IMG/VR virus record: IMGVR_UViG_3300045996_000852
Span: 128,001-165,392 of that record
Direction: 5' to 3' (one strand)
Length of the DNA stretch: 37,392 nucleotides
Source: a virus
Lineage: Duplodnaviria; Heunggongvirae; Uroviricota; Caudoviricetes
Part shown: positions 6,106 through 37,392 of the stretch, piece after piece
How the letters are laid out: each line of letters starts with the position of its first letter
How positions within the stretch are numbered: the first letter of the stretch is position 1
The notes under the pieces: generated by a model
Database searches by the model: none
What the model was told of the DNA's origin: nothing
The model's input: the letters and a program-made list of their open reading frames with translations, nothing else
Position numbers and translations under genes: made by a program

Positions 6106-6108
6106 TTG

Positions 6109-6181
6109 GGTGATATACCAGATTCGAACTGGTACGAAGACAACCACAATGTCTCATGCTGACCGTTACATTAATACCACC
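6109..6181 (-). tRNA. tRNA-His (GTG) with encoded G-1
   Basis: G-GTGGTAT...AGACA TT GTG GT TGTCT...ACCAG TTCGAAT CTGGT ATATCAC-C. Confidence 0.9.
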
Positions 6182-6188
6182 GTATTTG

Positions 6189-6264
6189 GGTCTCATAGCA
6201 GATTCGAACTACTATCAAGGGCATGATTGGAAGCCCCTATCCTAGCCATTAGACGAATGAGACC
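6189..6264 (-). tRNA. Atypical tRNA with 10-nt anticodon loop (TTCCAATCAT), G-1:C73
   Basis: Acceptor GTCTCAT/ATGAGAC, D arm GTCT..GGAT, anticodon stem GGGGC/GCCCT, T arm AGTAG TTCGAAT CTGCT. Confidence 0.75.
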
Positions 6265-6268
6265 ATAT

Positions 6269-6388
6269 AAATCTTTATATTATGAGATACCTTTTCCGTG
6301 GTCACTGGTTATCCAGTATGTGTTTTACGTTCCACACCCCTTTTCGGTGACATTGTACTCAGTTGGCTCTTATTTAATATAAAGATTT
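6269..6388 (-). ncRNA. Candidate structured RNA between tRNAs
   Basis: Perfect 14-bp closing stem aaatctttatatta (6269-6282)/taatataaagattt (6375-6388) enclosing GC-richer hairpins. Confidence 0.45.
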
Positions 6389-6389
6389 G

Positions 6390-6462
6390 GGTGCTGTAAA
6401 GGAATCGAACCTCTCTTTCAGGCAGAAAAAGCCTGTGTCCTAGCCGATAGACGAACAGCACC
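6390..6462 (-). tRNA. Atypical tRNA: Glu-like body, anticodon TTT, C37, G-1:C73
   Basis: G-GTGCTGT TC GTCT ATCGGCTA GGAC A CAGGC TTTTTCT GCCTG AAAG AGAGG TTCGATT CCTTT ACAGCAC-C. Confidence 0.8.
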
Positions 6463-6704: not shown

Positions 6705-7134
6705 TTGTTAATGTATTTAACAGTTAGTTAATCAATTCACGGTCAGAATAGACAATGATAACACTCCTCTCTGTAGTAACACAAATAGGTATAGTAATCA
6801 TCATCAGTATAGTAATAATATGTCTCATAGTACTTGTTTTTATTAGTTTTAGTATATATTGCAACAGCTTACCACATTTTACCACTTTCTCACACTCATC
6901 CCAAAGTCCCTACTGGTTCTCAGGTCACACCCTCATTCAACACATTTTATATAGAAATCCTCCAATAAAAGAAAAAAGAGGTCACACTGTCCTTGTGCAA
7001 CCTCTTGACATTCATAGAATTAACTTAGTACATCCTTTCGTACAGTTCATTCTCTTGTTCTGTTGTCATTTCTCTTGTCATGGTAGGCTATTTGAGCTTT
7101 GTTAATAGACAAACTATAACACTATGTTAATAGT

Positions 7135-7223
7135 TGTCCGATTGGGTTATTAAAAGTCCAATAATCCCGCAATAAATAGGAATTATTGGACCTACAATAA
7201 CATTTGATGTCCGATTGGGTTAT
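7135..7223. repeat. 16-bp direct repeat flanking an inverted repeat
   Basis: tgtccgattgggttat at 7135-7150 and 7208-7223; gtccaataat (7156-7165)/attattggac (7182-7191). Confidence 0.85.
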
Positions 7224-7224
7224 A

Positions 7225-7374
7225 CTAACCCTTTTCAGTAGCTTCTTTAGCTGCACTAAATGCCACAACTAGACCTACGAAGAGAATAATACCTGCCACA
7301 TATTTGATTACAGGATTCTCTACTTGGAATAATCCCCATGCTATGAAGATTAATAATATTGCTATTCCCCACAT
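7225..7374 (-). CDS. Small membrane protein (49 aa, not in ORF track)
   Basis: MWGIAILLIFIAWGLFQVENPVIKYVAGIILFVGLVVAFSAAKEATEKG. Confidence 0.6.
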   Translation of the reverse strand: MWGIAILLIFIAWGLFQVENPVIKYVAGIILFVGLVVAFSAAKEATEKG

Positions 7375-7485
7375 AACTTATAGTTTTACAATTAGTTAGA
7401 TAATAAAACAAATATAGGAACTACAGGTATTAGCTATAGTTCCCATATTTATTCGTTTCGTACAGTTTAATGTGTAACGTACAAT

Positions 7486-7510
7486 AAAAAAGGGAGATTT
7501 CTCTCCCTTT
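7486..7510 (-). terminator. Intrinsic terminator
   Basis: Minus strand AAAGGGAGA-GAAA-TCTCCCTTTTTT directly after stop of 7513..7953. Confidence 0.75.
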
Positions 7511-7512
7511 GA

Positions 7513-7953
7513 TTATAATACAACTGCATCATCCTGCTCACCACGCTTACCAACGATAAGACCTACTTCATTGGTCTCTTCATCTACCACTTCATAGAAA
7601 GCGATAGATTCTTCCGGCACTTTGAAGTAAGGATTACCGTTCTTGCTCTCTTTGTAAGGAGTCAATGCTGCGATCTCATCCTTCAAGGCATTAGAAGCCC
7701 AGATAGGATATTCTTCTTTGGTTTGCAGATGAACCAGCGTGAAGCGATACTTCATGCCGCCATTGTCATAACCGAAAGCCTTTAAGAACACCTGTCCACC
7801 TTCACTGAAACCTTTGGCACTGAACTTCACTCTCTTGAGTGCATCCAGTGTGTAAGATACCACGTTGCCTGCCTTGTTTGCAATCAGGCTAAAGGTTTTG
7901 CTACCTGCTTGCACTTTCTTCCTGTCGAGTTTGTTTGAAACTGTTTGTTCCAT
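7513..7953 (-). CDS. Hypothetical protein, first gene of the leftward block (likely start MEQTVSNK at 7953)
   Basis: ORF track 7513..8049; the AT-rich leader before ATG 7953 favours the shorter start. Confidence 0.8.
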   Translation of the reverse strand: MEQTVSNKLDRKKVQAGSKTFSLIANKAGNVVSYTLDALKRVKFSAKGFSEGGQVFLKAFGYDNGGMKYRFTLVHLQTKEEYPIWASNALKDEIAALTPYKESKNGNPYFKVPEESIAFYEVVDEETNEVGLIVGKRGEQDDAVVL

Positions 7954-9625: not shown

Positions 9626-9733
9626 ATATATTAACTTTACTTCTTATGGTAATTGCAAAATACGATACGATACTTGGATTCCAATACTTCGAATTCAGAC
9701 CTGACCTTCTAGCAAACTACAACAAATTTATAT

Positions 9734-10147
9734 ATGGAACACGAAGAGGAAAAGAAAGAGATAGAGTACATGCTACCAACGGAACCCTCGTACTTCGAAG
9801 GGGAAGTTTTAATAGGAGAGCAATGGATGCCAATAAAGACGAAAGACCTGAGTCGAGTTACTAAGGAAATCAGAAGAGGAACTATCAGAGTTAAAAGATT
9901 GACCAAGGAAGATATTGAAAAGGAAGGTTGGAAGTATACAGGAAAGTCTATTAATATATGGTTTGAGAAGGAAGGTAATTTCGAAAGAACAACATGGACT
10001 GCATATAAAGCCATCTTGCATTATAATACATATGATAATTGGATGACTGTATATTTAAAAGACTATGATAATGAGCATCATATATTTCAAGGTAAATGCC
10101 CTGATATAAATACTTTCCGAACTATACAAAAACTTTTAAACATATGA
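9734..10147 (+). CDS. Hypothetical protein
   Basis: 137 aa, ATGA-coupled to next gene. Confidence 0.8.
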   Translation: MEHEEEKKEIEYMLPTEPSYFEGEVLIGEQWMPIKTKDLSRVTKEIRRGTIRVKRLTKEDIEKEGWKYTGKSINIWFEKEGNFERTTWTAYKAILHYNTYDNWMTVYLKDYDNEHHIFQGKCPDINTFRTIQKLLNI

Positions 10148-11971: not shown

Positions 11972-12304
11972 ATGTCAAACAAAAACAAAGGACAAAAACA
12001 ATTAACTCCCTCTCAGCAGTTTGAAGCAATGAGGAATCAGGTTCTTGTAGTAGAACTTGAGGCAAGATTTGCTAAGGCAAACTATGATAAAATGTATTAT
12101 GCTATTGAAGGAGAGAAGTTGATTGATGATTACAAAGGATTCCAGACAAGAGAGAATGAAAGAAGGATTGCTGCTCAGAAGCAATATGACGAATTCATTG
12201 CAGGAATCAAGAAAGCCCAAGAAGAATCTTCTACTACAGAAGAAGGAGAAGCTACTACACCTGTAGTTAATCTGGAAACTGAACCTGAAGAAACAAGAGC
12301 TTAA
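11972..12304 (+). CDS. Hypothetical coiled-coil protein
   Basis: 110 aa, helical with acidic tail. Confidence 0.8.
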   Translation: MSNKNKGQKQLTPSQQFEAMRNQVLVVELEARFAKANYDKMYYAIEGEKLIDDYKGFQTRENERRIAAQKQYDEFIAGIKKAQEESSTTEEGEATTPVVNLETEPEETRA

Positions 12305-12322: not shown

Positions 12323-12787
12323 ATGCATTATCAAACAGGAAATACTCCCCCCACTCACAGTCACTATGATAACCTTGATGGCAACATTAAGAACTTTACT
12401 CATATTGACCATGATAAGAAACTGAAAGTTGCAGTTGGTGGTAAGGAATCCCTAGAAGACCTACAGGAATCACTTAGGCAGTATAAACAGGATAACATTG
12501 AAAGGATTCTGTTATTACCTGCCTATGCTATTCTGGTAGGACAAGCTCCTGAACGTTACGAGGAGTTTGTAATCAGGGATTTAAAGAGTGGAGAAATTAA
12601 GTGGAATGAAACAGTAGTGAGGAATTACTGTGAGACTGTAGGAATGTATGAGAACTATGTCCTTCATCTTAGGGTATGGAGAGGTTGTGCCAAATTTGAA
12701 TACTGGTGGTCACCAATCCCTACACTGGAAGAAATGAAAGAAGGTAAACATAAGGACATGCTTGCTTCCTTTAAACAGAACATTTAA
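12323..12787 (+). CDS. Hypothetical protein
   Basis: 154 aa ORF. Confidence 0.8.
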   Translation: MHYQTGNTPPTHSHYDNLDGNIKNFTHIDHDKKLKVAVGGKESLEDLQESLRQYKQDNIERILLLPAYAILVGQAPERYEEFVIRDLKSGEIKWNETVVRNYCETVGMYENYVLHLRVWRGCAKFEYWWSPIPTLEEMKEGKHKDMLASFKQNI

Positions 12788-12806
12788 CTTAATATGTTAA
12801 ATACTT

Positions 12807-12853
12807 AAATACATTAATTTACCAGAAAATAAATTTGGTAAATTAATGTATTT
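12807..12853. repeat. Perfect 18-bp inverted repeat
   Basis: aaatacattaatttacca (12807-12824)/tggtaaattaatgtattt (12836-12853). Confidence 0.9.
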
Positions 12854-12882
12854 TTTGTATATTATTATAAACCAACCCAAAG

Positions 12883-13251
12883 ATGGAAATCAAGGTTCTT
12901 CAAGATAAGATTCTATTGCAGGAAAAGAAGGACGTTCTTAGATGGCATTTGTACGGTAAATTCTTACAGTACAATATCAAACCATTTGAGAATGACCTAG
13001 ATATACTGCTAGAACTATATGAATTTGGGGGTTATGACAATGCTGAAGAGCAAAGTCTATTTATAGAACGTTGCTTAACTAAAGGACTTCGTAAATCTAG
13101 CCAAAGTGTAAGAAATACATTATCTAAGTATACGAAGCTCAAGGTTTTAGATAAACCAAAGAACAAAAAGATTCATCTGAGTGATAAATTCATCCCTCAG
13201 GTTAAATGTGATAAGCTTGTTTTACAACCTCTAATCTGCCACACCAATTAA
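12883..13251 (+). CDS. Putative winged-helix DNA-binding protein
   Basis: KSSQSVRNTLSKYTKLKVL recognition-helix-like motif. Confidence 0.55.
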   Translation: MEIKVLQDKILLQEKKDVLRWHLYGKFLQYNIKPFENDLDILLELYEFGGYDNAEEQSLFIERCLTKGLRKSSQSVRNTLSKYTKLKVLDKPKNKKIHLSDKFIPQVKCDKLVLQPLICHTN

Positions 13252-32782: not shown

Positions 32783-33256
32783 ATGTTAAAATACCTCCTG
32801 AACAAAGAAACTACAGTAATAGGGAAAATAAAGAATGTATTTGCAGGATTCACTTTCTGTTTACTATGGGTAACGTTTGTGAAGCTCCTTATTAATACTT
32901 TATATGGAGTCCCTATACTTCAAATAGACCCTGCTTTTCCACCCGGGATACCTTATATATTCTTTTGGGGAGTAATAGCAGCACCCTTATGGGAAGAAGC
33001 AGCATATAGATATTTCCCAATGAAGGTTGTACAAAAATTTGGTATGGAACTTCTAATGCCAGTAATGATATTAAGTTCTATTATTTTTGGATGGGGACAT
33101 GGACTTGGATTCATCTCTATACTAATTCAAGGGGTCTGTGGATTCATAATGAATTGTGTTTATGTAAAAAATGGAATGTCCTACTGGTCCTCTGTATCCT
33201 TACATGCTATGTGGAATTTTCAAGTAGAATTTGGATTACCTTATTTTTTAAATTAG
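32783..33256 (+). CDS. CPBP (CAAX/Abi) family intramembrane glutamic endopeptidase
   Basis: Motifs WEEAAYR (EExxxR), FGWGH (FxxxH), LHAMWN (HxxxN) in a multi-TM protein. Confidence 0.9.
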   Translation: MLKYLLNKETTVIGKIKNVFAGFTFCLLWVTFVKLLINTLYGVPILQIDPAFPPGIPYIFFWGVIAAPLWEEAAYRYFPMKVVQKFGMELLMPVMILSSIIFGWGHGLGFISILIQGVCGFIMNCVYVKNGMSYWSSVSLHAMWNFQVEFGLPYFLN

Positions 33257-33385: not shown

Positions 33386-33413
33386 AAATAATTTTTAAAA
33401 AGTTGCTCAAATA

Positions 33414-33445
33414 TTTGGTGGTTTGGAATAAAAGTTGTATTATTG
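33414..33445 (+). promoter_or_regulatory. Promoter of tRNA array 1
   Basis: TTTG-N20-TATTATTG, Bacteroidota -33/-7 geometry; near-identical copy at 34558-34589. Confidence 0.7.
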
Positions 33446-33452
33446 TATTGTC

Positions 33453-33545
33453 ATGAAAAAGAATCGTCAACATACGTGGTTTACCTTTACTCAGTGTCCG
33501 TTTGGATATTGTGAGGGTTGCCCTGTATGTACGATTATGAGATAA
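33453..33545 (+). CDS. Attenuator leader peptide 1 (30 aa)
   Basis: MKKNRQHTWFTFTQCPFGYCEGCPVCTIMR; codons 5-17 use only amino acids of the downstream tRNAs; contains antiterminator strand 33510-33519. Confidence 0.85.
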   Translation: MKKNRQHTWFTFTQCPFGYCEGCPVCTIMR

Positions 33546-33570
33546 ATATTTTCAAAGTTGTATACCTCAA

Positions 33571-33603
33571 GGAATCCTCACAGAAATGTGGGGATTTTTT
33601 GTT
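33571..33603 (+). terminator. Attenuator terminator 1
   Basis: aatcctcaca-gaaa-tgtggggatt-ttttgtt, ending 4 nt before tRNA-Pro. Confidence 0.9.
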
Positions 33604-33607
33604 ATAA

Positions 33608-33681
33608 CTAGTTGTAGTTCAGCCCGGTAGAACACTTGCTTTGGGAGCAAGGGGTCGTAGGTTCGAATCCTGCCAGCTAGA
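33608..33681 (+). tRNA. tRNA-Pro (TGG)
   Basis: Cloverleaf; CTTGC TT TGG GA GCAAG. Confidence 0.95.
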
Positions 33682-33743
33682 CAAAAGTCAATGTATATGT
33701 TTACAAGTTAACTTAAAAGTAAACTTATAAGTTGACGAAATAA

Positions 33744-33814
33744 GTCTCCGTGTCCGAGTGGTTAGGAAGAGGTCTGCAAAACCTTGCACACCAGTTCGAA
33801 TCTGGTCGGGGATT
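33744..33814 (+). tRNA. tRNA-Cys (GCA)
   Basis: GAGGT CT GCA AA ACCTT; U73. Confidence 0.95.
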
Positions 33815-33883
33815 CAAAAGATTGTTCCTTTAAAAAGGAAGACGAGTGAAAGTGGATAGCGGTCTCCACCAATCTTTTTATAA

Positions 33884-33956
33884 GCCGTGGTAGCTCAACT
33901 GGTAGAGCACCTGCCTTGTAAGCAGGGGGTTGGAAGTTCGATTCTTCTCCACGGCT
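33884..33956 (+). tRNA. tRNA-Thr (TGT)
   Basis: CCTGC CT TGT AA GCAGG. Confidence 0.95.
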
Positions 33957-34055
33957 CTTGGACTATTGTAAAAGATGGTCCCGGAAGGTTGCCGAATGAA
34001 ATAACCTCTCCTTATGGGAGTATCCGAAGTGCGGATAGTGAAAAGTCGGAGCTAA

Positions 34056-34128
34056 GGTGCAGTAGCATAGCTGGTCTGTGCAGGGGACTGAAAATCCCAA
34101 GGTGTGAGTTCGACCCTCACCTGTACCA
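34056..34128 (+). tRNA. tRNA-Phe (GAA)
   Basis: GGGA CT GAA AA TCCC. Confidence 0.92.
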
Positions 34129-34136
34129 CTTAATAT

Positions 34137-34207
34137 ACGTGTGTGGTGAAATGGTATCATGACGGTCTCCAAAACCGTTGTTGGGAGTTCGAATCTCTCC
34201 ATACGTG
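34137..34207 (+). tRNA. tRNA-Trp (CCA)
   Basis: ACGGT CT CCA AA ACCGT; G73. Confidence 0.95.
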
Positions 34208-34267
34208 CTGAATGTTGCATATTTTACACATTTCCTGTATTTTTGTGTATTATATGAAACATTATAT

Positions 34268-34338
34268 TTCTCTCTGGTGTAATGGTAACATATCAGATTT
34301 TGGCTCTGATGTTCAAGGTTCGACCCCTTGGGGAGAAA
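34268..34338 (+). tRNA. tRNA-Gln (TTG)
   Basis: TCAGA TT TTG GC TCTGA; U1-A72. Confidence 0.95.
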
Positions 34339-34340
34339 CT

Positions 34341-34411
34341 GTGGCTGTAGCTTAATGGTAAAGTGGTAGTTTGTGGCACTACTGATGGGAGTTCGATTCT
34401 CCTCAGTCACC
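34341..34411 (+). tRNA. tRNA-His (GTG), T rather than G at -1
   Basis: GTAGT TT GTG GC ACTAC; C73. Confidence 0.93.
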
Positions 34412-34453
34412 CAACATGTACTAATTTATTACAAATTAGTAGATATTAGTAAG

Positions 34454-34526
34454 GCACTTTTAGTTTAACTGGATAGAATATGGGGCTACGGACCCCAAGG
34501 TACTTGTTCGAATCAGGTAAGGTGCT
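34454..34526 (+). tRNA. tRNA-Arg (ACG)
   Basis: TGGGG CT ACG GA CCCCA. Confidence 0.93.
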
Positions 34527-34557
34527 CAAAAATATTTTTAAAAAATATGAAGAAAAA

Positions 34558-34589
34558 TTTGGTAGTTTGGCATATTCTTCGTATTATTG
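34558..34589 (+). promoter_or_regulatory. Promoter of tRNA array 2
   Basis: TTTG-N20-TATTATTG, same as 33414-33445. Confidence 0.7.
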
Positions 34590-34619
34590 TATTGTAATTA
34601 AAAACAGACAAAGCAACAA

Positions 34620-34715
34620 ATGTTACATTCTTATATGATAGTGGATAATGGGATTAACCTAAGAGGTGCGGAGAAATCTGCCTCAGGGTTCCTATTGTCT
34701 GATATTATCGTATAA
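34620..34715 (+). CDS. Attenuator leader peptide 2 (31 aa)
   Basis: MLHSYMIVDNGINLRGAEKSASGFLLSDIIV; contains gcctcagggttc (34680-34691), perfectly complementary to the terminator 5' arm. Confidence 0.85.
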   Translation: MLHSYMIVDNGINLRGAEKSASGFLLSDIIV

Positions 34716-34738
34716 GATAAATATAGATCAGATTAAAA

Positions 34739-34776
34739 GAACCCTGAGGCTCCTAAGCTTCGGGGTTTTTTGTTTT
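34739..34776 (+). terminator. Attenuator terminator 2
   Basis: aaccctgaggct-ccta-agcttcggggtt-ttttgtttt, ending 2 nt before tRNA-Lys. Confidence 0.9.
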
Positions 34777-34778
34777 AT

Positions 34779-34851
34779 ACCCTCGGAGCTTATGTGGACA
34801 AGCTGCTCACTTTTAATGAGAGGATAGTAGGTTCGAATCCTATCGGGGGTA
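34779..34851 (+). tRNA. tRNA-Lys (TTT)
   Basis: CTCA CT TTT AA TGAG; G at position 8. Confidence 0.9.
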
Positions 34852-34889
34852 CATATGAAACAATTCGTGATTTGCGGATTGCGGATTAT

Positions 34890-34962
34890 GCTCCTATAGC
34901 TTAATCGGTAGAGTACCTGACTCTTAATCAGGGGGTTCTGAGTTCGAGTCTCAGTGGGAGCA
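34890..34962 (+). tRNA. tRNA-Lys (CTT)
   Basis: CCTGA CT CTT AA TCAGG. Confidence 0.95.
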
Positions 34963-35003
34963 CTTTAACATTTACTTAGTTCTTATAGTTCTTATATTTA
35001 GAT

Positions 35004-35177
35004 ATGAGAATCTATATAGGAATCAGAAAACCAAGTAAAGATAGAAAAGGAAACATTGGAACTACTTGGGAAGAACAAGTTAATGGTAGTTACATATGTA
35101 AAGAAACAAGAAAAGTGCTTAAACAATGGCAAATTGAAAATGATTTTAGATTAGGTTATTTAGAAATAGTTCCTTAA
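35004..35177 (+). CDS. Hypothetical protein (57 aa, not in ORF track) overlapping tRNA-Val
   Basis: MRIYIGIRKPSKDRKGNIGTTWEEQVNGSYICKETRKVLKQWQIENDFRLGYLEIVP. Confidence 0.55.
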   Translation: MRIYIGIRKPSKDRKGNIGTTWEEQVNGSYICKETRKVLKQWQIENDFRLGYLEIVP

Positions 35178-35240
35178 CTCAGTTGGTAGAGTGTCATCTT
35201 TACATGGTGAAAGTCGTCAGTTCGAGCCTGACAGGAACTA
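35168..35240 (+). tRNA. tRNA-Val (TAC)
   Basis: TCATC TT TAC AT GGTGA. Confidence 0.95.
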
Positions 35241-35332
35241 CAAAAGGGTGCTGTGAATAATGAAGTTAATAAACAGGACTGCCTCGTTTCTGGAATGGTC
35301 GTTGGGTAGCTGATGACATCCTTACTTCACTT

Positions 35333-35404
35333 GGTCCCATAGTTAAATGGATATAACTTCTGCCTTCTAAGCAGATATTCGTGGTTCGATTCCACGTGGG
35401 ACTA
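35333..35404 (+). tRNA. tRNA-Arg (TCT)
   Basis: TCTGC CT TCT AA GCAGA. Confidence 0.95.
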
Positions 35405-35414
35405 CAAATAATAT

Positions 35415-35488
35415 TCCCCTGAAGCTTAAGTGGTATAAGCTACTGCCTGTTAAGCAGAAGATAGTTGGTTCGAGTCCAATTGGGGGAG
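35415..35488 (+). tRNA. tRNA-Asn (GTT)
   Basis: CTGC CT GTT AA GCAG; G73; A at position 8. Confidence 0.92.
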
Positions 35489-35505
35489 CATAAAAAAAAC
35501 CAAAC

Positions 35506-35787
35506 ATGGATAATATATTTTCCAAAGGTGATAAATATGTTCACTTTAAAGAAGACGGTACTATTGTAACAGGAGAAGTTAAATCAGTAGTATTAAGTCA
35601 GGTTTCGGATTTAACTGGATTTTGTTATGAGGTGATAAATCTTGAAACACAAGATAATAAAATATTATCAATAGGTCAGACAAAAGGAAGGATTCATAAA
35701 TTAAATCATACTATGACTCCCGAAGAGAAAGATAAATTTAATAGGGGTGAATTTGTAGATAATACTCCTTGTAGAAGAGAAAATTAA
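35506..35787 (+). CDS. Hypothetical protein inside tRNA array
   Basis: 93 aa, SH3/KOW-like start FSKGDKYVHF. Confidence 0.7.
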   Translation: MDNIFSKGDKYVHFKEDGTIVTGEVKSVVLSQVSDLTGFCYEVINLETQDNKILSIGQTKGRIHKLNHTMTPEEKDKFNRGEFVDNTPCRREN

Positions 35788-35790
35788 TAT

Positions 35791-35862
35791 TGCGAGGTAG
35801 AGCAGCGGTAGCTCGGAAGGCTCATAACCTTTAGGTCGGGGGTTCGATTCCCTCCCTCGCTA
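35791..35862 (+). tRNA. Initiator-type tRNA-Met (CAT)
   Basis: T1xT72 mismatch, A11-T24 pair, GAAGG CT CAT AA CCTTT. Confidence 0.88.
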
Positions 35863-35869
35863 CAAATAT

Positions 35870-35942
35870 TGTGAGGTGCTTGTAACGGTAACTGGTCAGG
35901 CTCATATCCTGAACGATGTCGGTTCGAATCCGACTCTCGCAA
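35870..35942 (+). tRNA. tRNA with CAT anticodon (Met or Ile2), weak D stem
   Basis: TCAGG CT CAT AT CCTGA; T arm GTCGG TTCGAAT CCGAC. Confidence 0.8.
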
Positions 35943-36040
35943 CATGAGATTTTTACTGCTTATGATATTCTTTATTTCCTGTAGAAATGGAGAGTATAAA
36001 CCAAATCACATAGATGGTGTCTATGTAAAAAATAAACACA

Positions 36041-36526
36041 ATGGAAAAGTACTTCAAAACAGTGGAAGGAAAGTATGTGAATATTGTGAAGCATACTTTG
36101 GAACAACTAAATAAGTGGGATGATTTGAGAATCTATGTTGGTACAGACTCTCAAAGTGAAAGTGATTTTACAATGTATGCTACTACAATCTGTTTTAGGT
36201 ATGGTAATAGAGGTGCTCACTATATTGTATTCAAGGAAAAAGTTCCAAGAGTTCGTGTAGAATACATGAGATTATACGATGAAGGTTTAAGAACATTAGC
36301 TGCTTCTAAATTCTTGAATGATGAATTACAAATATTCCCATTCCTAGAGTTTGACTATGCTGATGTTAAGAAAACTGTTTCTTCAAACTTAGTTAGTGTA
36401 TTTAAAGGTTATCAGAATGCAAGATTCAAGTCAGAAGAAATGATTGCTACAAGAGCAGCAAATCATGAGTGTAGAAAGGAAAGTAATATGTTCAATCTTG
36501 AAGAAGCATTGAAACAAGCAGCTTAA
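36041..36526 (+). CDS. RNase H-like YkuK (DUF458) family protein
   Basis: IYVGTDSQ...YATTICF...GAHYI...RLYDE...ATRAAN motifs. Confidence 0.85.
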   Translation: MEKYFKTVEGKYVNIVKHTLEQLNKWDDLRIYVGTDSQSESDFTMYATTICFRYGNRGAHYIVFKEKVPRVRVEYMRLYDEGLRTLAASKFLNDELQIFPFLEFDYADVKKTVSSNLVSVFKGYQNARFKSEEMIATRAANHECRKESNMFNLEEALKQAA

Positions 36527-36638
36527 TACCGTATCGGGTTTTGTGGTATAAGGAGACCCTGCCTTATTGTCGAAAGACGGATAAGAAAAACCACTTTAAA
36601 TATCTCCCATAGAAGGTGCTTGCGGTGACCTTCTCTAA

Positions 36639-36710
36639 GCAGGAATGGTGTCAATGGTAACACACAAGACTTCCACTCTTGGGTTGAGAGTTCGAATCTC
36701 TTTTCCTGCT
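36639..36710 (+). tRNA. tRNA-Gly (TCC)
   Basis: CAAGA CT TCC AC TCTTG; U73. Confidence 0.95.
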
Positions 36711-36799
36711 CAGGTCAGTTTGATTGTTCTGCGTGTAGTTAAAAACAATCTTGTAGTCGGATGGTAACTCCCCAAAATGTTATCGGATGACTACTCCTT

Positions 36800-36872
36800 G
36801 CAGTAGTAGCTCAATTGGTAGAGTGCCACCTTGCCAAGGTGGAAGTTGACAGTTCGAATCTGTTCTACTGCT
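36800..36872 (+). tRNA. tRNA-Gly (GCC)
   Basis: CCACC TT GCC AA GGTGG; U73. Confidence 0.95.
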
Positions 36873-36992
36873 CAATTAACTTATGACAGTGAAACTGTCG
36901 GGGTCCGTAAGTATCTACGTAACCATCCGTAGTGAACGTCCGGGTGATGATGTCCAGACCCTTGAGGACTTATCAACCTATGTTAATTATCT

Positions 36993-37065
36993 GCCCCTAT
37001 CGTCTAGTGGTCTAGGATACACGACTTTCTATCGAGTGACACGGGTTCGAATCCCGTTGGGGGTA
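36993..37065 (+). tRNA. tRNA-Glu (TTC)
   Basis: CACGA CT TTC TA TCGAG (one stem mismatch, T37). Confidence 0.9.
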
Positions 37066-37070
37066 CATTT

Positions 37071-37142
37071 CGAGGTATGGTTGAATGGTACAATGCCGGA
37101 TTGTCAATCCGTGTGGTACGGGTTCGAATCCCGTTATCTCGG
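37071..37142 (+). tRNA. tRNA-Asp (GTC)
   Basis: CGGA TT GTC AA TCCG; G73. Confidence 0.92.
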
Positions 37143-37149
37143 CTTAATC

Positions 37150-37233
37150 GTCCTACTCCTCCTGTGGAATCTATCCACGAAGCAACTGAGGCTAGGTTGT
37201 GATACAGTAACCACTGTAGGGAGGACGTAGGAC
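37150..37233 (+). ncRNA. Candidate four-way-junction RNA
   Basis: Long closing stem gtcctac-tcctcct/gggagga-c-gtaggac with three hairpin arms. Confidence 0.55.
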
Positions 37234-37238
37234 AAAAT

Positions 37239-37311
37239 AGACTCTTAGCTCAGTTGGTAGAGCAAGATGCTCATAACATCGAGGTCACCAGTTCGAATCT
37301 GGTAGAGTCAA
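37239..37311 (+). tRNA. tRNA with CAT anticodon (Ile2 or elongator Met)
   Basis: GATG CT CAT AA CATC; A1xA72. Confidence 0.88.
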
Positions 37312-37316
37312 CACAA

Positions 37317-37390
37317 GTTGGTATAGCTCAATTGGTTAGAGCACCACGCTGATACCGTGGAGGTTGAAAGTTCGAGTCTTTCTATCAACA
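37317..37390 (+). tRNA. tRNA-Ile (GAT)
   Basis: CCACG CT GAT AC CGTGG. Confidence 0.95.
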
Positions 37391-37392
37391 CA

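Follow-up and report, generated by a model that had tools for sequence, protein, structure and literature searches.

Results

The tRNA arrays and their leader open reading frames

The stretch of DNA analysed here (the window; 37,392 nt, positions 128,001 to 165,392 of the virus record IMGVR_UViG_3300045996_000852) carries at its right end two arrays of transfer RNA (tRNA) genes, each headed by a promoter, a short open reading frame (ORF), here called the leader, and an intrinsic terminator. The whole record comprises 165,392 bp. Its two ends overlap by the same 127 nt, which makes the contig circular, and a third unit of the same design follows outside the window. The order in each unit is promoter, leader ORF, sensor codons, alternative helices, terminator and array. 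All features of the two units inside the window lie on the plus strand. ARAGORN called 21 plus-strand tRNA genes at 33608-37391, which were confirmed by Rfam, and the order and anticodons in both arrays are exactly those given in a preliminary description of this DNA.

The first unit opens with a promoter of the Bacteroidota type, P1 (33411..33452), with TTTG at 33414-33417 and TATTATTG at 33438-33445. The ATG of leader 1 follows 7 nt past the -7 box of P1, and because of this short distance the messenger RNA is predicted to be nearly leaderless. Leader ORF 1 (33453..33545; MKKNRQHTWFTFTQCPFGYCEGCPVCTIMR) has 30 codons and homologous ORFs in 8 related contigs. Its codons 5-17, the predicted sensor 1 (33465..33503), read R Q H T W F T F T Q C P F and, as had been claimed, use all eight amino acids of array 1 and no others, with Arg encoded by CGT. 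Downstream of the sensor lies region 2 of the leader (TTGTGAGGGTTG; 33509..33520), the putative antiterminator strand and pairing partner of the terminator 5' arm, with a predicted duplex energy of -14.3 kcal/mol (RNAduplex; z -4.1 against 200 shuffles); masked folds were also made. Intrinsic terminator 1 (33572..33603), with arms at 33572-33582 and 33587-33597 followed by a U-run, forms a predicted hairpin of -14.1 kcal/mol; it was missed by a consensus terminator scan and found by RNA folding. Four nucleotides later begins tRNA-Pro, the first gene of array 1 (33608-34527; ARAGORN, Rfam), which consists of Pro(tgg), Cys(gca), Thr(tgt), Phe(gaa), Trp(cca), Gln(ttg), His(gtg) and Arg(acg).

The promoter of the second unit, P2 (AATTTGG ... 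TATTATTG; 34556..34589), was found by a motif scan at genome position 162556 and is separated from the ATG of leader 2 by 30 nt. Leader ORF 2 (34620..34715; MLHSYMIVDNGINLRGAEKSASGFLLSDIIV) has 31 codons, with homologues in 9 related contigs; it contains no Q, T, W, C or P, again in agreement with the preliminary description, and both H and F are present. Sensor 2, formed by codons 6-19 (34635..34676), reads M I(ATA) V D N G(GGG) I(ATT) N L R(AGA) G(GGT) A E K, that is, all ten array-2 amino acids plus one foreign codon. Region 2 of this leader (TGCCTCAGGGTTCC; 34679..34692) is again the candidate antiterminator strand (RNAduplex -25.6 kcal/mol, z -7.8), and intrinsic terminator 2 (34736..34775), with a 16-bp stem, a CCTA loop and a U-run, is situated 4 nt before tRNA-Lys. 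In the leaders of the window the hairpin with its U-run ends 4-10 nt ahead of the first tRNA. Codons 2-5 of the class-2 leaders, at 34623-34634 in the window, nearly always include Tyr and/or Leu (MLHSY, MSYLY, MYNL, MYL, MYLFY, MQL), both of them array-3 amino acids, and array 3 lies downstream of array 2 in most contigs.

Array 2 extends through the window from 34779 to 37392 (tRNAs at 34779-37391, with small ORFs interspersed) in the order Lys(ttt), Lys(ctt), Val, Arg(tct), Asn, two tRNAs with the anticodon CAT, Gly(tcc), Gly(gcc), Glu, Asp, a third CAT tRNA and Ile(gat). The small ORFs within the arrays have no match in Pfam or PHROGs. An RNaseH-like ORF (PF04308; 36041..36526) is located between the Met and Gly tRNAs of array 2 in every relative covering the region, and served as a handle for finding these relatives. 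The array then crosses the contig junction, and its last member is an Ala(TGC)-like tRNA at L001 131-205. This gene after Ile was called by neither ARAGORN nor Rfam, and it was accepted solely because it aligns with ARAGORN-called tRNA-Ala genes of five relatives. tRNA-like genes with an unusually long D-arm containing GGCTGGCG (Ala TGC, Trp CCA), missed by both programs and lying in register within arrays, occur at L001 131-205, L012 8097-8172 and L020 about 9711-9790.

The third unit comprises promoter 3 (L001 ~218-249), leader 3 (L001 520-612; MNQVLSYYSSLSLLLQNKENGNSMSEEQIG), terminator 3 (L001 631-663) and array 3 (L001 667-1473), with Leu(caa), Leu(tag), Leu(taa), Ser(tga), Ser(gct) and Tyr(gta). 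Codons 5-15 of leader 3 specify solely L, S and Y, and each of the six tRNAs has a cognate codon among them. It had been predicted that Leu, Ser, Tyr and Ala tRNAs, and no Gln, Thr, Trp, Cys or Pro tRNAs, would be found downstream of the window; these expectations were borne out, with the modification that the Leu, Ser and Tyr genes sit behind a promoter, leader and terminator of their own. The proposal of two leaders splitting the genetic code therefore has to be replaced by one of three leader/array units, which jointly span all 20 amino acids, and the L, S, Y (and H) codons opening leader 2 should no longer be counted as array-2 codons, since Leu, Ser and Tyr own a separate leader.

Between promoter 3 and leader 3 (L001 298-520) lie a 12-codon ORF (MKTLFTLGRMRY), a small hairpin and a very basic ORF of 50 amino acids, which has no match in Pfam or PHROGs and whose stop codon overlaps the leader 3 ATG. 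Past array 3 (L001 1559-1930) a promoter-like site, a 20-codon ORF and a terminator-like hairpin were noted, followed by an ORF-poor stretch of about 250 nt with no match in Rfam.

Correspondence between leader codons and array content

Relatives were sought in IMG/VR and metagenomes by means of the RNaseH-like ORF of array 2 and degenerate leader patterns. The metagenome scan yielded three short contigs, and a scan of genome contigs with the RNaseH-like alignment yielded nothing. One contig picked up by the leader-2 pattern (L017) was rejected as a chance match, having neither tRNAs nor a leader. In total, 11 further contigs with the same design were found, giving 30 leaders in 12 contigs (9 of class 1, 10 of class 2 and 11 of class 3). 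In all contigs array 3 holds exactly the tRNAs with a long variable arm (Leu, Ser, Tyr), array 2 the readers of codons starting with A or G, and array 1 those of codons starting with C or U, plus Thr.

For the comparison of codons with arrays, the sensor was defined by RNA pairing alone, as the 13 codons preceding the antiterminator strand, amino acids being ignored. The mean share of sensor codons specifying amino acids of the leader's own array was 0.83 (n=23 leaders), against 0.07 (maximum 0.23, n=38) for the other arrays of the same genome; low own-array shares come from incomplete contigs and from tRNAs missed by ARAGORN. Under strict wobble rules, 201 of 297 sensor codons have an ARAGORN-called reader in their own array, and 22 can be read only by a tRNA of another array. 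Separate codons represent both Gly, both Ile and both Ser families, as well as the Leu families.

The match extends to the choice among synonymous codons. The previously proposed division of Arg codons, CGT with the ACG tRNA and AGA with the TCT tRNA, holds in this genome and in the relatives tabulated: in the class-1 leaders tabulated (n=6) Arg inside the sensor is encoded by CGT or CGC, matching tRNA-Arg(ACG), and in the class-2 leaders tabulated Arg is AGA in 8/8, matching tRNA-Arg(TCT). Two class-1 leaders have one AGA each in the tail. In the long ORFs of the phage, Arg is encoded by AGA in 64% of cases, by AGG in 24%, by CGT in 8% and by CGC in 0%.

A survey of relatives for leader codons that vary together with array content, suggested in the preliminary description, revealed three such events among the 11 related contigs. 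In L014, tRNA-Cys is carried by array 2 and not by array 1; correspondingly, the sensor of leader 2 (MYLIVDNMICGNGRAKE...) includes a Cys codon and leader 1 (MIKFQHTRFWFTQPT...) has none, Cys being present in all 8 other class-1 leaders and in no other class-2 sensor. No Arg(acg) could be detected in array 1 of L020, whose leader 1 is devoid of Arg. In the same contig Arg(tct) is missing from array 2 and lies 2.3 kb past array 3, and the leader-2 sensor lacks Arg, which is present in all 9 other class-2 sensors.

A chance origin of the leader composition was ruled out by counting comparable runs in the genome and in the related loci. A six-frame search of the 165-kb genome for stretches of at least 13 residues drawn only from P, C, T, F, W, Q, H and R and including all eight gave a single one, leader 1, with about 0.05 expected. 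Runs of at least 11 residues consisting of L, S and Y occur twice in six frames of the genome, one of them being leader 3. In 150 kb of related loci, all 7 runs of at least 10 array-1-set residues with at least 6 distinct ones are leaders.

Evidence for translation of the leaders

Start and stop codons are kept in 30/30 leaders (29 ATG, 1 GTG), the stop codon being placed after region 2 and ahead of the terminator. In the aligned ORFs, the length of internal gap runs is divisible by three in 33/33 cases in class 3, 16/19 in class 1 and 24/33 in class 2, where 8 of the 9 exceptions fall in one column. The distance from the -7 box to the ATG is 4-7 nt in 7/9 class-1 leaders and also in three class-3 leaders, and in several others the ATG overlaps the stop codon of an upstream ORF. 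On the strength of the kept start and stop codons, the in-frame indels, the short spacing from the box to the ATG and the overlaps with upstream stop codons, we infer that the leaders are translated.

One could also imagine that the locus encodes an untranslated RNA element, the reading frames and their composition being by-products of RNA structure or of chance. The sensor region doubles as a strand of the 5' hairpin, so RNA constraints do act on it. Such an explanation, however, leaves the universally kept start and stop codons and the preponderance of indels in multiples of three without a reason, and the sensor-type runs are unique in six frames. Moreover, only tRNA reached the Rfam gathering score in the window, L001 and L014, with no leader, T-box or cis-regulatory family among the hits, and at E <= 1 the leader regions gave weak, chance-level matches only. 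We regard an untranslated element as extremely improbable.

Terminators and alternative RNA structures

A hairpin with a U-run follows the stop codon in 28/30 leaders; that of L006 was found under a different rule. Across the leaders the first tRNA starts 4-16 nt past the terminator stem, and an internal promoter between terminator and array was excluded because this gap is so small. In 12/12 leaders folded first, the predicted minimum-free-energy structure comprises a 5' hairpin in which the sensor pairs with region 2, plus the terminator. The segment that pairs best with the terminator 5' arm follows the sensor directly in every case, at ORF nt 47-74 or, in the N-terminally extended leader of L002, at ORF nt 114-123.

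The terminator arm appears to evolve together with this partner. When it was paired with its own leader or with leaders of the same class from other genomes, the duplex energies were -22.8 versus -14.2 kcal/mol in class 2, -11.5 versus -8.0 kcal/mol in class 3 and -13.9 versus -10.8 kcal/mol in class 1, values reached by 0/5000, 0/5000 and 26/5000 permutations, respectively. In the class-2 alignment the terminator itself covaries, with 85% of cells paired and 6 pairs changed on both sides, a score that 0/500 shuffles attained. Effects of ribosome position were modelled by co-transcriptional folds, in which the transcript ends before the terminator 3' arm and the ribosome covers 29 nt. For 21 of the 28 leaders folded in this way, a ribosome stalled on the sensor spares the antiterminator, which is lost when the ribosome occupies the six codons that come next; this outcome follows partly by construction.

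The terminators might instead be constitutive leaky stops, which set the level of array expression, the ORFs being kept for the sake of their peptides, for example the Cys-rich tail of leader 1. This would accord with the Cys-rich class-1 tails in 8/9 contigs, with a peptide motif, GGCGCGG, recurring in three contigs, and with the preference for terminators in equilibrium folds (see Discussion). Sensor residues, however, permute freely and still stay within the set of the array, as the class-1 examples RQHTWFTFTQCPF, RTHTWQPFTQCPF, RQWHTPTCTQCPF and HRTHTWFTTCPQCPF illustrate, and the Cys-rich tail is missing in L014, exactly where tRNA-Cys has left the array. A plain terminator would also have no need of an arm co-evolving with the ORF segment after the sensor. 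These features make the leaky-stop explanation very unlikely. The Gly/Cys motif GGCGCGG occurs as a separate mini-ORF, at the N-terminus of a leader of class 1 and at the C-terminus of a leader of class 2 (L010 7904-7951, L002 6477-6540 and L005 about 6130-6157).

Discussion

A proposed mechanism of tRNA array control

The conservation of the design in 11 further contigs, the matching of leaders and arrays at the level of codons, the three co-variation events and the co-evolution of antiterminator and terminator arm together support the core of the attenuation reading put forward in the preliminary description, including codon-matched leaders with antiterminator/terminator alternatives; its two-unit layout proved wrong. 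Judging from these sequence features, the three leaders are very probably trp-type ribosome-mediated attenuators gating the tRNA arrays, and we infer that read-through into the arrays would be conditional. The triggers named in the preliminary description, namely anticodon nucleases, host tRNA decay and starvation, are conjectural, as is its proposal that the arrays are transcribed solely upon stalling.

It is established for the trp and his leaders that an attenuator senses aminoacyl-tRNA. In the phage, host RNA polymerase would start at the Bacteroidota-type promoter, and a ribosome would load at once. If all aminoacyl-tRNAs of the set were plentiful, the ribosome would run across region 2, which, being masked or re-paired with region 1, would let the terminator form, and transcription would stop short of the first tRNA by 4-16 nt. 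If even a single sensor codon were read slowly, the ribosome would stall on region 1, region 2 would pair with the terminator 5' arm, and transcription would enter the array. The tRNAs produced might then relieve the stall, which would amount to negative feedback on decoding capacity, exerted separately for each of the three amino-acid groups.

Several observations weigh against this interpretation. Sensor 2 includes the foreign codon Leu CTA, and the codons opening leader 2, for L, H, S and Y, are foreign to array 2. Among the 297 sensor codons, 74 have no strict-wobble reader among the called tRNAs; many of these are ACY, CTC and TCC, which would need a U34 reading four ways. Each amino acid is represented by 1-3 codons per sensor, and the gain per tRNA may thus be low. 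L011 lacks the tRNA-Val, -Arg and -Asn of its near-twin L012 and retains the same leader, in what looks like a recent deletion. Counted column by column, the antiterminator of class 2 covaries weakly (75% paired, a score reached by 39/500 shuffles and equally by a slide of +1), as the pairing register differs from one genome to the next. Seven of the 28 leaders fail the footprint criterion of the co-transcriptional folds. In classes 1 and 2 the ORF extends 8-13 codons past region 2, and a ribosome at the stop codon leaves region 2 uncovered, unlike in the textbook trp case. Finally, in equilibrium folds the full-length leaders 1 and 3 go to the terminator at nearly every ribosome position, and only leader 2 switches, at codons 6-12. 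Given this equilibrium preference, the decision would have to be kinetic, by pre-emption, and trp attenuation likewise relies on kinetic pre-emption.

An attenuator, moreover, cannot distinguish a missing tRNA from an uncharged one. This blindness allows for the same switch being used with another signal, the amino-acid or translation state of the cell, with stalling serving to time the phage programme and the tRNA genes being passengers. The small ORFs and the RNaseH-like gene that would be co-transcribed with array 2 could be accommodated in such a scheme. On the other hand, the sensors track the arrays codon by codon, in the Arg CGY/AGA split as well as in the Cys and Arg events, and a general starvation sensor needs none of this; nor would the production of tRNAs bring any relief from starvation. 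We consider a state signal unlikely as the purpose of the switch.

If attenuation by the three leaders is accepted, a more far-reaching proposal may be formulated, namely that the virus carries a full decoding set which tunes itself. The three codon-class loops would detect the loss of any tRNA, whether through host anticodon nucleases, tRNA shut-off or the phage's own demand, and would re-supply the affected class, and the arrangement would be widespread in Bacteroidota phages. We put this forward tentatively, as a possible but somewhat doubtful extension.

Relation to known systems

Multivalent attenuators are well known from enterobacteria: the thr leader responds to Thr and Ile and the ilvGMEDA leader to Ile, Leu and Val, besides the trp, his, leu and pheA leaders. 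The phage units resemble them in having a short ORF near the promoter that carries regulatory codons, alternative 1:2, 2:3 and 3:4 helices and an intrinsic terminator before the regulated genes, and in that one leader would sense more than one amino acid. Unlike the enterobacterial leaders, those of the phage would regulate tRNAs, not biosynthetic enzymes, and would sense eight, ten and three amino acids, with 1-3 codons for each and no long runs; the three of them cover 20 amino acids, their ORFs reach well past region 2, the host probably belongs to another group, the Bacteroidota, and no Rfam leader family is matched.

Another related system is the pheST attenuator of Escherichia coli (pheM leader), which controls a tRNA synthetase and senses one amino acid. 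As is proposed for the phage, a leader-peptide attenuator is placed over a decoding component for the amino acid sensed, but in the phage the product would be the tRNA itself and the sets of amino acids are large. The T-box, typical of Firmicutes, binds tRNA directly without a ribosome and senses one tRNA. It would share with the phage leaders the sensing of the state of specific tRNAs through a codon-like specifier and the terminator/antiterminator switch; the phage sensing, by contrast, would go through the ribosome, and no T-box match was obtained in Rfam. The IAS virus (NC_049978.1), a Crassvirales phage, likewise has a large tRNA array and Bacteroidota-type promoters. In that phage, however, a promoter-like TTTG/TAccTTTG pair stands directly before the first tRNA, with no leader, and the three larger gaps of the array hold no codon-matched ORF with a terminator.

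To our knowledge, all described leader-peptide attenuators regulate amino-acid biosynthesis enzymes or tRNA synthetases, and the genes behind the phage leaders, being tRNAs, fall outside both categories. The novelty would thus lie in a textbook attenuation mechanism which regulates tRNA genes directly. No description of leader-peptide control of tRNA genes was found in full-text literature searches, nor in the passages of PMC2965389 that were consulted.

If the proposed mechanism is true, the leaders would be natural sensors reading up to ten amino acids simultaneously, and natural sensors of codon-specific decoding speed. It would also explain how tRNA arrays are dosed in large phages, and would provide a testable link between phage tRNAs and host defences that target tRNAs. 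Natural variants, such as the relative in which tRNA-Cys moved between arrays and the one in which Arg tRNAs were lost, offer ready-made controls.

The phage, its host and other features of the locus

Among the proteins encoded by the window are a large terminase, a portal protein and a major head protein. The terminase shares ~26% identity with its counterparts in crAss-like phages of Bacteroides, Flavobacterium and Cellulophaga, on which basis the phage is assigned as a distant crAss-like one. A DNA similarity search against 50,697 phage records gave matches to tRNAs only and no relative. A lookup of public sequencing runs returned one soil DNA run and two small shares, with no RNA run among them. 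The host is probably a member of the Bacteroidota, as suggested by the type of promoter preceding each leader, -33 TTTG / -7 TAnnTTTG, which we take to be the Bacteroidota consensus.

The strict motif AATTTGG...TAnnTTTG was found by the motif scan at 5 places only in the genome. Besides preceding leaders 2 and 3, it occurs at 115087-115054, 15 nt upstream of a gene for a phage transfer-messenger RNA (tag AEEELELV; complement of genome positions 114582-115039), which lies outside the window. Directly upstream of promoter 1, at window positions 32783-33256, there is a gene for a CAAX-protease-like (Rce1-like, PF02517) membrane protein, and a gene of the same family is placed likewise in the closest relative of the window (L005 4578-4766). 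On the minus strand of the window, at 6108-6461, an additional tRNA-His(gtg) and tRNA-Lys(ttt) with a tRNA-like stretch between them follow protein genes, with no leader or terminator of the attenuator kind.

In some relatives, HNH-endonuclease-like ORFs with CxxCH motifs are inserted between the leader terminator and the array (L011 about 7300-7876; L012 about 7000-7570 and 12400-12940). Between arrays 2 and 3 of L010, at position 12056, ARAGORN called a tRNA with the anticodon CTA, a reader of TAG, which hints at stop-codon recoding in that phage.

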